A DNA stretch of 64,000 nt from Trichormus sp. ATA11-4-KO1 (GTDB lineage Bacteria > Cyanobacteriota > Cyanobacteriia > Cyanobacteriales > Nostocaceae): NCBI GenBank assembly GCA_019358915.1, contig JAHHIM010000065.1, positions 192,001-256,000 of the forward strand, written 5' to 3'. Numbering within the stretch: position 1 is the first letter of the stretch; each line of letters begins with the position of its first letter. The position numbers and the translations under genes are program-made. Shown one piece after another: positions 34,874-43,890 of the stretch. The notes below the pieces were generated by a model that worked only from the letters and a program-made list of their open reading frames with translations, was not told where the DNA came from and searched no databases.

Positions 34874-35095
34874 ATGACATTACAAGAATTGCAAAAACAA
34901 GTACTGCAATTACCAACAAGTCAACGCTGGCAATTAGTACATACTCTGTTAGAATCACTACAACAAGAAATTCAACCAGTATCAAAAAAAAGGAACTTGT
35001 CTCGACTGCGTGGTATTGCTAAAGATGCCAATATATCCAATGATGAAAATATGACGGCAGATTATGTTACTTATTTGACAGAAAAATACCAGTAA
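34874..35095 (+). CDS. putative antitoxin of a PIN-toxin TA pair
   Basis: 73 aa (LQLPTSQRWQLV...YLTEKYQ); its stop overlaps the PIN start (TAATG). Confidence 0.65.
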   Translation: MTLQELQKQVLQLPTSQRWQLVHTLLESLQQEIQPVSKKRNLSRLRGIAKDANISNDENMTADYVTYLTEKYQ

Positions 35096-35280
35096 TGCAA
35101 GTTTTAATTGATACAAATGTCGTTCTTGATTTTTTACTTGAACGAGAGCCTTTTGTAGAAGATGCAGTCAAAATCTTTGCAAAAATTGATGCAGGTGCGA
35201 TTGAAGGGTTTATTACTGCCACTACAATTACTAATATTTATTACATCATTCGTAAAGCCGCCGATGCATTATTGGCATAA
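35095..35280 (+). pseudogene. truncated PIN (VapC-like) toxin
   Basis: VLIDTNVVLD...TITNIYYIIRK, only 61 aa; it ends at the sequence repeated downstream of clpC and lacks the C-terminal acidic residues. Confidence 0.8.
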
Positions 35281-35611
35281 AAAATCTCCCCAACACTAAG
35301 GGAGATAAAAATTAAAAATTTTTTAATAAAAAAACGGTAGAGAACCGAAATCCTCCACCGCTTATTTAATTTAAAAAATTCTAATTAAGATTCAGCACCT
35401 TGGGGCATTAATTCCCGACGCTGTTGAGAACTAACTTGGACAACGCCATTTTCATCAACATCAACTAAGGCTGTATCGCCGTCCTTGATGCGACCAGACA
35501 AAATTTCTTCTGCTAGGCTATCTTCTAACAAGCGCATAATTGCTCGACGTAATGGTCTAGCACCGTAGCTAGGACTGTAACCTTCCTCAATCAAACGATC
35601 TTTGAAGCGAT
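35270..35611. repeat. direct duplicate of the clpC 3' end, terminator and downstream DNA (second copy split as 36451-36484 + 37664-37979)
   Basis: Base-by-base match with two coding substitutions and a few intergenic differences. Confidence 0.95.
35385..35611 (-). pseudogene. clpC: orphan clpC 3' fragment
   Basis: The encoded peptide is identical to the ClpC C-terminus (...[16 protein letters not shown]...QGAES). Confidence 0.9.
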
Positions 35612-35842
35612 TCAGTTACTTAATTCCGCAGCTAGAAGCCTACCTTCAATTGGTTCATACTCATCTTCAAGTAACCATAACTTAGCAATATCGTAGCTAT
35701 TGCTAGAAAATACAACTTTATAACCCTGCGCTGGATCATAAATTTTACAGTTTTCTTGACCGTCACAAAGCAACAAAAGAATATATGGAGGCGATAACAT
35801 TGGATCTATCCATACTTCCGTAAATTCCCAGTTATTCTTCAC
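35612..35842 (-). CDS. small acidic hypothetical protein, putative antitoxin/immunity
   Basis: A GTG start at 35842 overlaps the upstream gene's end; 76 aa ([13 protein letters not shown]...[14 protein letters not shown]). Confidence 0.65.
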
Positions 35843-36167
35843 TAGGTCTGGTGCGGGGGATGACGTGGTATTGGTTGTCTGCATTGATTTTTATCTCCCC
35901 ATAATAAAGTAGAATATGGCTACCATCTGGACTGATTCTATAACCTATTGGTTCATTAAAAAACATTCCGTAGCGTTCATAACCGCGAATGATTCCAGTG
36001 AACTGTCCATTTTCTATGGCTTGGGCAACTTGATTCATGGTAGTTTCATCGTTAAATACATGAGCTGCCAGTCCTCGTTTAAGAAGTCTTTGCATTTGAG
36101 GTGTACCAGCTATGTGCTTGGCAACTTGTCTAATATCAAGCATAATTTGACGATTTATTTCGCTCAT
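35832..36167 (-). CDS. small hypothetical protein, putative RNase toxin (Ntox50-like motifs)
   Basis: KHIAGT near the N-terminus, PIGY, and terminal YHVIPR; likely start MSEINR. Confidence 0.6.
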   Translation of the reverse strand: MSEINRQIMLDIRQVAKHIAGTPQMQRLLKRGLAAHVFNDETTMNQVAQAIENGQFTGIIRGYERYGMFFNEPIGYRISPDGSHILLYYGEIKINADNQYHVIPRTRPSEE

Positions 36168-36246
36168 TATTAAGTACCTACGCATAAATATTTAGACATT
36201 TTTCCACACGAATGAAATCGCTGTATTCCAATACTGTCACCTGTCA

Positions 36247-36274
36247 CCGTTCGGCTGACGCTCACGGCGAAGCC
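36247..36274 (+). repeat. small dispersed repeat CCGTTCGGCTGACGCTCACGGCGAAGCC (copy inside lysA at 41844; variant at 13406)
   Basis: Near-identical sequence at 36247 and 41844. Confidence 0.85.
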
Positions 36275-36476
36275 TGTCCCCTTTCCTAGCTAGGTAATTT
36301 ATTTTGCACGACTACTTAATATGTCTTGTATATTGTTGATATCACCAGCTTGCCTAGCTAGCTAATTCAGTCTGAATAGCAGAATACCGCCTTAAAGGTA
36401 CGGTTATTACTCTATTTAGAGGTAAAAAATTATTCTGTACACTGCCACCTTATTTGCATAAAACATCTCCCCAACA

Positions 36477-37663
36477 CTAAGGGATGGTGAATTCGCTGTT
36501 ATCAAGCGGGGTGGGGTCGATGAACCAGCCGATACCGTTGGCGTTGTGGTCGATGAGGATTGTGCCTCCGTTGGGGTGACCGAGGGGGTCGAATTGGGTT
36601 AGTTGAGCTTCTGCTAGTTGTCCGGTGGGGAGGTCGGTGATTTGGAAGGAGATGTTTAAGGTGGGGTCGAAAAGGGATGGCCACAGATCAGTAGCACTAT
36701 ATTTAAGATCGGAAAATAAGTTGGAGGTTAAATTATGGTTTGGAGAATTACTACTGATGAATTGTTGGCGCGTTATAAAGCTGGGGAGCTTAACTTTAAT
36801 GGGATTGAGTTGATTCGCATTGTTGGCGAAATGGGCGAAAGAGATGGGATCGATGGTCAGATTACTGGGCTTGAAGGTGCTGACTTGCGAGGTATTAGCC
36901 TGCGGGGAGCTAATCTTGAAGATGTCGATTTGAGTGGGGCTAATTTGACTGGATCTGATTTGTTCGGAGCTTATCTGGGTGGGGCTGGTTTGGTAAAAAC
37001 TATTCTCAGGGATGCTAACTTGTTCTCCGCCAACCTGAATCATGCCACTCTGACCGGAGGTGATTTGACCGGGGCTAATTTGAGCCATGTAAACGCGATT
37101 AGCACTGTTTTCATTGGTGCTAAAGTTGGACACTTTGAATACGCCGATTTGACTCAGGCTAATTTCCGAGATTCTACTGCTAATGCGTATGGTCTCTGTC
37201 GTAGTTTCAATCTGATCTGGCGTACTATTATGCCCGACGGTAGCATCGAAGAAGGTCCCTACTATAAATGGAGATAGTTCTTTTTCTGTTGCAGCCATTA
37301 AAGGGGCTGGTTCAATAATGTTAATTCTTGTTCTAATATCTGTAACATTGCGATTTTCAATTGCTTGTTGAATATCTGTAGGAATATTGGACAAAAAATT
37401 ATAGCCAGTTATATCTTCAAGTTGTTTAACATTAAATAGTCCAAATGTTTTTCCATTAAGTGTAAAGTTTTGTTCCCAATGCTCATCAGGGTCTTGCCCT
37501 TTACGATTTGCATCAAGGGTATTGGGTAAATAAATACCAACTTCCAAACACTTTCGGAGACACTGATTTTATTGTTAAGTAGAAGAGGATTGCCAGAACT
37601 ATCTATTGCTTGTCCCTCTCTTCCTGCAATGACATACAGTTCTTTATTATGCTTATTTCACGT
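36477..37663 (-). pseudogene. internal fragment of a large protein gene: C-terminal part of a DNA/RNA non-specific (NucA-like) endonuclease domain, a periodic linker, and the start of an LPTGQLAEA...GWFIDPTP domain
   Basis: NKELYVIAG...NKISVSESVWK in one frame (about 37654-37540), then GIYLPN...VKQLEDITGYNFLSNIPTDIQQAIE in the ORF frame; truncated at both ends. Confidence 0.75.
36735..37277 (+). CDS. pentapeptide repeat protein, nested antisense to the nuclease-fragment frame
   Basis: GGAGG at 36723-36727, 7 nt before ATG; typical ELLARYKAGE start, A(D/N)Lxx repeats and IMPDGS end. Confidence 0.88.
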   Translation: MVWRITTDELLARYKAGELNFNGIELIRIVGEMGERDGIDGQITGLEGADLRGISLRGANLEDVDLSGANLTGSDLFGAYLGGAGLVKTILRDANLFSANLNHATLTGGDLTGANLSHVNAISTVFIGAKVGHFEYADLTQANFRDSTANAYGLCRSFNLIWRTIMPDGSIEEGPYYKWR

Positions 37664-37693
37664 TAAGGGAGATAAAAATTAAAAATTTTTTAA

Positions 37694-37730
37694 TAAAAAA
37701 ACGGTAGAGAACCGAAATCCTCCACCGCTT
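37694..37730 (-). terminator. clpC intrinsic terminator (duplicated at about 35327-35363)
   Basis: Minus strand CGGTGGAGGA-TTTCGG-TTCTCTACCG followed by a T7 tract. Confidence 0.7.
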
Positions 37731-37752
37731 ATTTAATTTTTAAAAATCCTAA

Positions 37753-40224
37753 TTAAGATTCAGCACCTTGGGGCATTAATTCCCGACGCTGTTGAGAACT
37801 AACTTGGACAACGCCATTTTCATCAACATCAACTAAGGCTGTATCGCCGTCCTTGATGCGACCAGACAGAATTTCTTCTGCTAGGCTATCTTCTAACAAG
37901 CGCATAATCGCTCGACGTAATGGTCTAGCACCGTAGCTAGGACTGTAACCTTCCTCAATCAAACGATCTTTGAAGCGATCGCTCACTTCTAGGGTGATAC
38001 CTTTTTCTGTTAGGCGACCAAATACTTCCTTGAGCATGATCTCCGCAATTTGTGTCACCTCTGGCTTGCTCAACTGACGGAAGACGATAATTTCATCTAG
38101 ACGGTTGAGGAACTCTGGACGGAAGTATTGCTTCAGTTCTTCGTTCACCAAGGAGCGAATACGGTTGTATTGTGACTCGCTAGCATCGTCGGCGAATTCA
38201 AAGCCGATACCGCCGCCGCCTTTTTCAATTACCTTGGAACCAATGTTAGAAGTCAAAATCAGCAAGGTGTTCTTGAAGTCTACTGTGCGTCCTTTGGCAT
38301 CGGTTAAGCGACCGTCTTCCAAAATTTGCAGCAGCATGTTGAAGACATCGGGGTGAGCTTTTTCGATTTCATCGAATAGCACCACAGTATAAGGTCGCCG
38401 TCTGACAGCTTCAGTTAATTGACCGCCTTCGTTATATCCAACATAACCAGGAGGTGAACCAATCAACTTGCTGACGGTGTGGCGTTCCATGTATTCGGAC
38501 ATATCCAAACGGATCATTGCTTCTTCGGAACCGAAGAAGTATGAAGCCAAGGATTTCGCCAATTCTGTTTTACCTACGCCGGTCGGCCCGGAGAAGACAA
38601 AACTAGCAATAGGTCGATTGGGATTTTTCAACCCGACACGAGCGCGACGAATTGCTCGTGAAACTGCTTTGACTGCATCTTCTTGACCAATTAAGCGTTG
38701 ATGCAAGGTGTCTTCCATGTGCAGCAACTTCTCGGATTCTGATTCGGTGAGCTTGTTCACCGGTACACCAGTCCAGGAAGCGACGATGTGAGCAATGTCC
38801 TCTTCGTCTACTACAGGTTCTTCACCTTCATTGCCAGAAGCATTGGTTTTGCTTTGAGCGATCGCGCGAATTTCGGCTTTGATTTCCATCTCGCGATCAC
38901 GCAGTTCACCAGCTCTATCGAAGTCTTGGGAGCGTACAGCGTCGTCTTTTTCTTTTAAGATTTGCCGTAGTTCTTTGTCTAACTCTTTGGCTGCGGGTGG
39001 CAGTTGGGAGTTAATCAAACGTACCCGAGAACCAGCTTCATCGATTAAGTCGATGGCTTTGTCTGGGAGGTAGCGATCGCTTATGTAACGGTCAGATAAT
39101 TTTGCCGCCGCCACCAAGGCTTCGTCAGAAATTTTCAGCTTGTGGTGCTGCTCGTAGCGTTCGCGCAACCCGTGCAAGATTTCAATGGTTTCGTCAACTG
39201 ATGGTTCACCCACCATTACTGGCTGGAAGCGTCGCTCTAGGGCTGCATCTCGCTCGATGTGCTTGCGGTATTCATCCAGGGTTGTGGCGCCAATACACTG
39301 CAATTCGCCTCTAGCCAAAGCTGGCTTGAGGATATTTGCTGCGTCAATGGCTCCTTCAGCCGCACCTGCACCAATCAGGGTGTGTACCTCGTCAATTACC
39401 AGAATGACGTTACCCGCAGAGCGGATTTCATCCATGATTTTTTTGAGGCGTTCTTCAAATTCACCCCGGTACTTGGTTCCTGCTACCAGCAAACCAATAT
39501 CTAGTGTGACTACGCGTTTATCTTCCAGGATGTCGGGGACATCTTTGTTGGCAATGCGCGATGCTAGACCTTCGGCGATCGCTGTTTTACCAACCCCTGG
39601 TTCACCAATCAGCACTGGGTTATTTTTAGTCCGGCGACCCAAAATTTGGATCACCCGCTCAATTTCTTTGGCGCGTCCGACAACTGGGTCTAGCTTGTTG
39701 TCTGCTGCCATTTGGGTCAGGTTTGAGCCAAATTCATCCAAGGTTGGAGTTTTGGTGCGTCCCGATTGTCCAGTGGCTGAAACCTCTGCTGTTTCGCCCA
39801 GCATACGGATGACTTGGGTTCTGACTTTAGATAAATCCACCCCGAGGTTTTCTAGCACCCTGGCTGCTACACCTTCCCCTTCCCGGATCAGGCCCAACAG
39901 CAGATGCTCGGTGCCAATGTAGTTATGCCCTAATTGGCGCGCTTCTTCCAAGGATAGTTCTAAAACTCGCTTTGCCCGTGGCGTAAACGGAATTTCCACG
40001 GCCACAAAGCCCGAACCCCGGCCTATGATTTTTTCTACCTCAATGCGGGCATCTTTCAGATTGACACCCATTGATTTCAACACTTTGGCCGCGACTCCCG
40101 TACCTTCCCCAATCAGACCCAGGAGGATCTGTTCGGTTCCGACGAAGTTGTGACCTAAGCGGCGGGCCTCTTCTTGGGCCAGCATGATTACCTTAATGGC
40201 TTTTTCTGTGAAGCGTTCAAACAT
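37753..40224 (-). CDS. clpC: ATP-dependent Clp protease ATP-binding subunit ClpC
   Basis: [25 protein letters not shown]; two AAA+ modules ([16 protein letters not shown]). Confidence 0.98.
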
Positions 40225-42754: not shown

Positions 42755-42966
42755 AGAGTGCTGAGTGCTGTAGACGCTTCTGCGGCTGACCGCAGGGTGG
42801 AACCAGTGACGTGTACGTAGGGGTCTCCCCCTCCGTAGGATGCGCGCAGCGCTGTAGTGGAGCATCTGGCGTTGCTGAGTGCTGAGTTAAGCGTTAACCT
42901 TTGATGCATAAACATGCCAGATTAATGACAAACTATTGAGGCAGAACAGAGAGTAATCCAGATGTC

Positions 42967-43890
42967 ATGAGAGATTCGTGGAAGCAATGGCTGACAAACC
43001 TGGGATGGTCACAGTCCTTGCTGCTTGGGACTCTGGATATCGTGTTAGTACTGGCGCTGACGTACATGATACTAGTTATCATTAGTGAGCGCCGGACATT
43101 ATGGATGGTGCGGGGATTTATTATTTTGATGCTAGCCTCAGCACTCAGTGGCAGAATGGGTTTACCACTACTAAATTTTGTTTTGGAAAAGCTGGTGATT
43201 GGCTGCGCTGTAGCGATGGCAGTTGCTCTACAGTCAGAGTTTCGCCGATTTTTGGAGCAAGTAGGACGTGGTGAATTCCAACAGTTGTTTAAACCATCCA
43301 ATCTCACAATCCCCAAGTCTGATAGTGTAATTGATGAAATTGTGGATGCGGTTAAAGAACTCTCGAAAAACCGAATAGGAGCTTTGCTGATTTTGGAAAC
43401 AACTGGCCCGATTGACGAGCGGGATTTTTCCGTACCTGGAGTTAAGCTGAATGCTGACGTTTCTAAGGAACTAATACAAACAATTTTCCAGCCGAAAACT
43501 TTACTACACGATGGGGCGACGTTGATTCGTGGCTCGCGTATTGTTTCATCAGGTATAATTTTACCACTTTCGGAACGCACAGCCTCGCGCCAGTTGGGAA
43601 CACGCCATCGGGCAGCAATGGGAATTACTGAGCGGGTCAAAAATTGCATCTGTGTCGTTGTATCAGAAGAAACGGGTTCTATTTCCTTAGCGGAAAGGGG
43701 AACCCTAAATAGACCACTGACGATTAGGACGCTGAAAGAGTCATTAGAGGCTCGATTATCGCCAACAGTAGATCGGGAAGCTGTTGCTCCAGGTTTATTC
43801 ATTTTGGGTCGTCAGATGGGTGGTAAGGCACTAGTACTTGTTTCACGTTTACTCGGTTTACCATCGACCGCTTCTCGAAATAAAAAATGA
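42967..43890 (+). CDS. cdaA: diadenylate cyclase
   Basis: LHDGA, GTRHRAA and VVSEETG; three N-terminal TM helices. Confidence 0.95.

Follow-up and report, generated by a model that had tools for sequence, protein, structure and literature searches.

The window analysed here, a stretch of 64,000 nucleotides from the cyanobacterium Trichormus sp. ATA11-4-KO1, carries an intact gene for a pentapeptide-repeat protein (PRP) that lies antisense within the remains of a gene for a giant nuclease-bearing protein. Our preferred reading, to which we assign a probability of about 70%, is that the pair belongs to a polymorphic nuclease-toxin system in which a PRP immunity gene sits in the slot that NuiA occupies beside ordinary NucA nucleases and is nested by read-through of the toxin frame. 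A sequence-only reading of the window had proposed dual coding, a giant nuclease-bearing host and an orphan status of the window copy, all of which hold up in the comparative data below, and also an immunity role, which is favoured by genomic context.

The PRP gene (positions 36735 to 37277, plus strand) encodes 180 amino acids, matches Pfam PF00805 (Pentapeptide, E 6e-24) and 46 database proteins at E≤1e-40, and is a candidate orphan immunity gene of a giant-embedded nuclease. The strong GGAGG ribosome-binding site claimed for it is present at 36723 to 36727 (plus strand, 7 nt before the ATG), where the host strand reads Thr-Ser, and a putative -10 hexamer of the form TAnnnT lies 37 nt 5' of the start (36698 to 36703, plus strand). 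As described from the sequence alone, the gene falls wholly inside a minus-strand frame of the same triplet register, a fragment of the giant host ORF (36477 to 37568; 356 codons from TTG, 363 from stop to stop). A Pfam search recognised no domain in this frame, and its nuclease and HExxH parts were located with profiles built from homologues. They confirm that a NucA-like tail and an LPTGQLAEA segment are joined in one minus frame, which contains the C-terminal tail of a NucA-like nuclease without catalytic residues (37341 to 37541, minus strand; residues 10 to 76 of the frame; profile A1 positions 208 to 269, E 3e-10), a linker that is the antisense of the PRP gene, and the first third of a matrixin-like LPTGQLAEA..GWFID..HExxH domain (36486 to 36647, minus strand; residues 308 to 361; profile E 2e-27) that lacks the HExxH motif itself. 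A preceding piece of the nuclease lies in another frame (37529 to 37654, minus strand; profile A1 positions 149 to 191, E 1e-6), and DNA alignment with the copies on contig C41 and in locus L081 shows that the two pieces are parted by a 64-nt deletion that shifted the frame. The nuclease is thus indeed broken beside an intact antisense gene, with its catalytic half missing and 64 nt deleted relative to the C41 copy.

The same genome encodes an intact parent in the form of a 10,408-codon ORF on contig C41, with which the window's minus frame shares 61% identity over 359 aa; with a 780-codon fragment on contig C36 it shares 56%. The C41 ORF has near its start a matrixin-like HExxH domain that scores as Pfam Peptidase_M10 and is paralogous to a second HExxH domain further along, and continues through 24 CARDB stretches and PA14, Ig-like (He_PIG, Big_9), cadherin-like, RHS and dockerin domains; later follow, in this order, an Endonuclease_NS domain, the antisense of a gene for a 174-residue PRP, the second HExxH domain and further Ig/PKD domains. 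The endonuclease (about residues 9153 to 9443; PF01223, E 5e-34) carries the ERGH..N..E motif with the catalytic His, Asn and Glu, and the catalytic His is invariant in 27/27 host nucleases; the closest solved structure to the giant-type nuclease is secreted NucA (PDB 2O3B/1ZM8, E 7e-76). With about 965 residues following the nuclease, the toxin domain of the C41 giant is internal and not at the extreme C-terminus; in 17 non-nested relatives, or fragments of them, the nuclease is C-terminal. At the loci examined, no consistent neighbouring secretion genes were found around the giants. A PPIase gene of the kind seen in type I secretion operons lies downstream of the giant in only two of these loci and the C-termini vary, so that type I secretion is not established as the reason for an internal toxin. 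Annotation can hide such systems: a giant on a NIES-22 plasmid appears as one "polymorphic membrane protein" without an inner CDS in the (incomplete) PLSDB table. Some nested PRPs carry RefSeq protein accessions under a generic name; an exact look-up of ten PRPs in a protein collection matched five, and the five unmatched ones may reflect start-site differences.

The window copy itself is supported as an orphan cassette inserted behind clpC, with the antidote intact and the poison half broken. Comparison of its junctions with an uninterrupted site at about 35269 to 35303 and with C41 and C36 delimits a cassette of 1.18 kb (36485 to 37663) in a hairpin downstream of clpC, with one copy of a 7-bp direct repeat on either side (36478 to 36484 and 37664 to 37670). 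The cassette starts past the catalytic residues and stops short of the HExxH motif, and the minus frame takes its stop codon from the insertion site. The left edge of a variable island is marked by a second, 316-bp copy of the clpC 3' end (35297 to 35611, minus strand; blastn 98.4% to 37664 to 37979), and a genome of the same genus (G001) has different DNA behind clpC. The island holds a second pair of small genes, one for a DUF6972 protein (35832 to 36185, minus strand; Pfam E 1e-49) and one for a conserved cyanobacterial protein of 90 aa (35612 to 35884, minus strand). This pair, for which the ESM Atlas gives unnamed cyanobacterial clusters at 0.93 to 0.95, is possibly another remnant of a toxin tip with its immunity gene. 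Since the window PRP is only 53% identical to the nested C41 PRP (48% to that of C36), it derives from a different variant; the window copy would retain the antidote alone, against a nuclease variant that this genome does not encode whole. Among the metagenome matches listed, none is an intact cognate host of the window PRP, and the two closest of them (71% and 69% identical to it) are both orphans, one of them with a nuclease tail.

Nesting of this kind is widespread in cyanobacteria. A query spanning nuclease, linker and HExxH domain matched 140/401 genomes of the order at E≤1e-30, a count that takes in ordinary NucA genes, and yielded 54 loci in a species-representative collection, with named records from Nostoc, Tolypothrix, Calothrix, Rivularia, Dolichospermum, Chamaesiphon, Waterburya and Prochloron; the antisense segment was part of the query behind the first 84 loci. 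For codon analyses we used 28 PRPs flanked upstream by 250 or more open host codons and downstream by 200 or more, after removal of three duplicate loci and of ORFs cut by locus ends. The host frame is stop-free through the PRP in all 28 of these long hosts across cyanobacteria, so that these homologous loci show none of the minus-frame stops that would speak against dual coding, and position, orientation and register of the nested PRP are constant across cyanobacterial families. These PRPs have 0/582 Leu codons as TTA/CTA and 0/334 Ser codons as TCA, where about 245 stops would be expected at the codon use of free PRPs. On the host strand, TTA/CTA/TCA are found 0 times in 4,955 nested codons compared to 5.3% of 12,600 flanking codons, a figure that is partly circular because the PRP is defined as an ORF.

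As a control, we took all ORFs of the genome that match the PRP profile, 30 in total, of which three are nested and 27 free. The free ones use TTA/CTA for 262/720 Leu codons (36%, near the roughly 40% that the sequence-only reading had assumed) and TCA for 33/332 Ser codons (10%), and not one of them is without all three codons, as all three nested copies are. The codon counts given earlier for the window PRP (0/22 Leu as TTA/CTA, 0/9 Ser as TCA) are correct and have a chance of 1.9e-5 at free-PRP codon use, and the stop-codon avoidance is therefore no general property of the PRPs of this genome. TTG makes up 62% of Leu codons in nested PRPs and 21% in free ones. Provided that the giant ORFs are translated through the segment, we see practically no room for the view that codon bias in the PRP alone opened the antisense frame, or that the PRP is a chance passenger in a giant gene. 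Stop-free antisense segments do occur in some ordinary PRP stretches and long antisense frames in one unrelated metagenome PRP cluster, but none of the 27 free PRPs is stop-free, the placement of the nested PRP does not vary between families in position, orientation or register, and convergent, non-nested members of this PRP family do contain antisense stops. The latter is seen in a genus whose convergent PRPs show ordinary codons and 2 to 19 antisense stops (mostly 8 to 19).

Several features mark the inner gene as real. The host His residue opposite the PRP start is invariant, encoded by CAT in 26/27 loci and by CAC (GTG start) in 1/27, compared to CAT at 194/335 (58%) of other host His codons; these 27 loci are those of alignments A1 to A3, from which L024 was excluded because its nuclease start is missing. 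TAnnnT stands at offset -37 from the PRP start in 19/27 nested loci (runner-up offset 5/27); a scan for sigma-70 two-hexamer promoters found nothing above shuffles and did not call the TAnnnT of the window. A 4/6 or 5/6 match to AGGAGG precedes 24/28 nested PRPs, a count with no null model behind it. The dN/dS of the PRP is 0.23 [0.19–0.30] in four disjoint nested pairs and 0.19 [0.13–0.25] in eight orphan pairs. Values of about 0.2 indicate purifying selection on the PRPs, which outlive their host frame. That both overlapping frames are real genes is in our view highly probable.

The product of the host strand across the PRP is best read as a disordered linker that is kept free of stops, on the following grounds from composition and structure prediction. 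Its 5-periodicity, noticed from the sequence alone, is real and is explained by the PRP codons, with Leu TTG becoming Gln, Asp/Asn becoming Ile/Val and Ala becoming Ser/Gly on the host strand, which gives a Ser/Ile/Thr/Gln-rich segment. AlphaFold2 predicts this segment in context at a pLDDT of 22 to 35 with the flanking nuclease and HExxH domain folded, and alone (55 sequences) at a pLDDT of 46 without secondary structure, though the shallow alignments, with repeats possibly out of register, make this a weak test. An ESM Atlas search with the antisense product gave no usable match, and the alignment of the segment holds no invariant column. A second beta-helix from the antisense strand thus found no support in the two AlphaFold2 runs, weak as they are as a test of folding. 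It seems very improbable to us that the segment folds into a variable beta-helix within the giant, with both strands encoding solenoids and the host product under selection. Such a domain would fit the 5-periodicity with Ile/Val at every fifth residue and an overlap-aware host-frame dN/dS of 0.62 [0.51–0.74] in live hosts, yet this value is no sign of constraint because it is lower still (0.34) in orphans whose host frame is dead, and both the low predicted confidence and the missing invariant column speak against it. Comparing dN/dS in both frames, as the sequence-only reading had suggested, hence reveals purifying selection on the PRP and, in the host, only the avoidance of stops.

The association of PRP and nuclease was tallied over 85 distinct near-complete nuclease domains by taking whichever PRP or NuiA gene comes first within 700 nt. 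The first partner is a PRP for 53 nucleases (36 nested antisense, 16 convergent and separate, 1 on the same strand), NuiA for 22 and neither for 10. All 22 NuiA genes are convergent and directly downstream (identity confirmed by Pfam for 13), and NuiA is the first neighbour of 0/53 PRP-linked nucleases. The 32 nucleases with NuiA or no partner are short standalone NucA ORFs of 263 to 447 codons; conversely, each of the 44 nucleases with the giant-type upstream motif has a PRP, so that giant-type and standalone nucleases show no overlap in partner type. The genome of the window also has a separate nucA on contig C13 with its own NuiA-like gene. At locus L184, a PRP that looks unrelated lies about 800 nt from a standalone NucA. 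To control for retrieval bias, 401 genomes of the phylum were searched with the nuclease profile alone, which matched 40 genomes with 57 places listed. Here all 21 giant-type places have a PRP behind them (7 nested, 13 convergent, 1 on the same strand), with all 14 non-nested places coming from one genus, so that these loci are not independent. In this genus, the one with antisense stops mentioned above, the giant terminates with the nuclease and a convergent, non-overlapping PRP comes next, with tandem nuclease-PRP units and arrays of PRPs beyond it. The giant of locus L121 contains two nucleases and a nested PRP for each of them, and two giants that show no nuclease in the stretches covered also lack a nested PRP there. 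That the PRP is a dedicated partner of the nuclease is, in our view, very likely.

In a tree of 55 nucleases, 18 standalone NucAs form one short-branched clade (100/100), and the 37 PRP-linked nucleases lie outside it on long branches. Five non-nested nucleases stand at five separate places among nested ones in this tree, from which the direction between nested and separate states is not readable because it is midpoint-rooted. Net charge, as the excess of Asp and Glu per 100 aa, is 3.9 for the window PRP, with medians of 4.6 for nested and 3.4 for free PRPs; there is no clear charge complementarity, since the giant-type nuclease domains also have an acidic net charge and the PRPs exceed free ones in acidity only modestly. 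A complex prediction for the C41 nuclease and PRP, with the controls not folded, scored 0.00 against a mark of 0.32 and counts neither for nor against binding. Inhibition by DNA mimicry is a tentative idea that we hold to be rather doubtful; its precedents are PRP mimicry aimed at gyrase (PMC8145042, in the part of the paper covered) and, in the literature part covered, an acidic inhibitor of EndoG.

Nuclease and PRP are exchanged as a unit between conserved flanks. Across the 27 aligned hosts, the median identities of nuclease, PRP and downstream domain are 0.36, 0.37 and 0.59, and loci with nucleases at 0.35 can have downstream domains as similar as 0.92. Nearest neighbours agree between nuclease and PRP in 11 loci, between nuclease and downstream domain in none and between PRP and downstream domain in one. 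The nearest neighbours of nuclease and PRP differ in the other 16/27 loci, and recombination breakpoints also fall inside the PRP, giving chimeric PRPs such as that seen between C41 and L058 (0.96 to 0.99 identity in the N-terminal two thirds, 0.61 to 0.67 in the C-terminal third), which argues against a strict one-to-one specificity of the whole protein. Orphan cassettes include the window and C36 fragments and five cassettes in L065, and tandem nuclease-PRP units occur in L192, L195 and L197 and five PRP ORFs in L126. Among 27 PRP ORFs with fewer than 60 open host codons on both sides, a set that includes one maybe unrelated free PRP and one frameshifted piece, 19 have host-frame stops (1 to 4 each). 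Six Nostoc orphans that were inspected share one chromosomal site beside a gene that, from reading its translation, we take to be recQ, and therefore point to one acquisition kept over time. The earlier statement that toxin and inhibitor cannot be separated was too strong: 17/53 PRP partners are not nested, orphans are common and recombination occurs inside the PRP.

An inhibitor or immunity function of the PRP is probable from these genomic patterns, because it adjoins each giant-type nuclease, fills the NuiA slot, co-varies with the nuclease and forms orphan arrays. We consider it quite unlikely that the PRP is a dedicated partner of another kind, either a chaperone or export factor of the nuclease or a protector of DNA or gyrase like Qnr and MfpA. 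PRPs are known in gyrase protection and scaffolding (PMC8145042, in the part covered), and the existence of chimeric PRPs would also agree with such a role. However, an orphan chaperone would be useless, yet orphans persist under selection, and the mutual exclusion with NuiA suggests the same job. The window PRP moreover scores below every curated NCBIfam cut-off, and far below those of Qnr, MfpA and HetL (32 bits against a cut-off of 360 for the MfpA model; 20 to 24 against 240 to 500 for the Qnr models).

Under the polymorphic toxin reading, the parent would be an exported or surface protein of about 10,000 residues that bears a hypervariable, catalytically intact NucA-type nuclease, and its partner a cytoplasmic PRP whose role would most likely be to bind the nuclease and neutralise it, like NuiA with ordinary NucA. 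The start state would be a convergent tail-to-tail pair like NucA/NuiA; once the nuclease turned internal, the host frame would be read through the reverse strand of the PRP into the downstream conserved domain. For this the PRP would have to lose TTA, CTA and TCA, for which synonymous changes such as TTA/CTA to TTG would suffice, while it would retain its own promoter and ribosome site, and the reverse-strand product would be a tolerated Ser/Ile/Thr/Gln-rich linker. Nesting would then allow an internal toxin domain and its antidote to be swapped jointly by recombination in the flanks. A broader version, in which nuclease toxins acting between cells occur at the scale of the phylum, have cognate PRP beta-helix immunity genes antisense within the toxin ORF and became nested repeatedly from convergent pairs, we hold to be only a little likelier than even; the nested state would be reached repeatedly because the PRP reverse strand translates as a harmless linker.

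Variation of the nuclease and the orphans make a use between cells likely, and on balance we lean toward delivery of the nuclease into other cells. The PRP could instead be a self-safeguard that mops up mis-sorted nuclease as NuiA does, with the giant being a surface adhesin whose tethered nuclease digests extracellular DNA for nutrition, biofilm or motility. The giant does consist mostly of adhesin-type repeats, its nuclease is nearest to secreted NucA among solved structures, the PRP takes the convergent slot of NuiA and no delivery apparatus was found at the loci examined. We nevertheless regard this explanation as unlikely, as it predicts neither hypervariable long-branch nucleases and cassette swapping nor tandem orphan cassettes and selected PRPs without an adjacent nuclease.

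For many of the pentapeptide proteins of cyanobacteria no role is known. If the toxin-immunity reading is true, it would give a function to a large block of them and add a fold that is new among immunity proteins and might imitate DNA to block a nuclease, as well as a natural and ancient case of gene entanglement. "Immunity to nuclease toxins" becomes testable for a defined PRP subfamily with matched partners, and the system points to overlooked cell-to-cell competition in bloom-, mat- and lichen-forming cyanobacteria. The existence of fully embedded antisense genes in bacteria is disputed, and the cases that have been accepted are young and lack a known function, whereas the present one is shared across cyanobacterial families and offers built-in controls, in that the pair occurs in a nested, a convergent and an orphan state, plus a testable purpose. 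A literature search, with most subscription papers and supplements outside its scope, found no published description of a PRP nested antisense in a nuclease giant.

The comparisons that follow refer to the parts of the cited texts covered here. Like the polymorphic toxin systems of Zhang et al. 2012 (PMC3482391), the giants combine a large repeat-rich RHS carrier with a hypervariable nuclease, an adjoining small partner gene, swapped cassettes and tandem partner arrays, but their toxin domain is usually internal and the partner is nested antisense in the toxin ORF. The Tox-NucA partners listed there are SUKH, Imm36 and Imm-NTF2, and repeat-type immunity proteins for other toxins are of the HEAT, ankyrin and LRR kinds; "pentapeptide", "NuiA" and "CARDB" do not occur in its main text, last part and supplements aside. 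NucA and NuiA of Anabaena, where NuiA is a cytosolic safeguard against mis-sorted NucA (PMC13522737, PMC2790893), share the nuclease family and a convergent partner gene directly downstream. That NucA is a small, standalone, conserved protein in a clade of its own, whereas the present nuclease evolves fast as one domain within a giant and is partnered by a PRP without a NuiA domain. A NucA-peptidase system (PMC7159879) is alphaproteobacterial and trypsin-coupled. The DNA-mimic PRPs MfpA, Qnr and AlbG belong to the same repeat family, PF00805, but have gyrase as their target (PMC8145042); in the text of that paper covered here, "immunity", "antisense" and "overlap" are absent and "nuclease" appears once in an unrelated sense, and PMC12419801 mentions PRPs in another context.

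In gene topology, the nested PRP resembles olg1/tle3 and olg2/PA1383 of Pseudomonas aeruginosa (PMC8850804), likewise full-length genes embedded antisense in register, with olg1 even lying within an antibacterial effector gene; pop/ompA (PMC7103648) is a further embedded antisense gene grouped with them. However, olg1 and olg2 are young, species-restricted ORFs without a known function that arose by overprinting, while the inner PRP is a member of an old family, its overlap is common to cyanobacterial families and the improvised frame is the outer one. Synthetic alternate-frame insertion (OAFI, bioRxiv 10.1101/2024.11.07.622342) has the same read-through topology, but is engineered. The HNH insertion of ShiLan in phage methylase genes (PMC11855218) is a natural parallel, in that the outer gene translates the inner one as a tolerated loop; unlike this selfish homing nuclease, the inner PRP appears to serve the nuclease of its outer gene.

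In the island behind clpC that harbors the orphan pentapeptide-repeat protein (PRP) cassette, a DUF6972 gene overlaps a conserved cyanobacterial gene encoding 90 amino acids (window 35612-36185, minus strand), and this pair is possibly the remnant of a second toxin tip and its partner. An antitoxin-like gene and a PIN-domain gene (34874-35280, plus strand), the latter truncated at the hairpin, form a module that is also found about 1 kb behind clpC in the same-genus genome G001, which makes the 3' side of clpC a variable insertion site. A short dispersed repeat with many copies genome-wide lies at 36170-36320. Elsewhere in the window, long antisense ORFs opposite a diadenylate-cyclase-like gene (42933-43802, minus strand) and opposite clpC (39185-39922, plus strand) are probably shadows.

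The third cassette of this genome (contig C36:406523-409229; L022) is a mosaic of segments resembling either the giant ORF on contig C41 or comparison locus L058, and it is preceded by an additional nuclease-tail remnant. The intact C41 giant itself follows a gene of 243 amino acids (C41:678-1421; L112:690-1418) that matched no Pfam or NCBIfam family. Giants of the C41 type are carried by plasmids in Calothrix brevissima NIES-22 and Tolypothrix tenuis PCC 7101 (L148:5922-37211; L061); the NIES-22 plasmid giant is likewise preceded by a gene 54% identical to the 243-amino-acid gene, and a similar gene adjoins the giant at locus L115. This gene may be a conserved component of the system.

On the 3' side of the giants, a PPIase gene is present at loci L024 and L066, with an additional cNMP-binding ABC-transporter-like gene at L024; at these two loci only, the downstream genes suggest type I secretion. 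Locus L126 features five PRP ORFs and, between fragments of giant ORFs, an ankyrin-repeat gene (L126:1380-3449) that possibly represents another type of immunity gene. At least six PRP genes of another subfamily form a tandem array on a metagenome contig (L228), and one of them has long open antisense frames.
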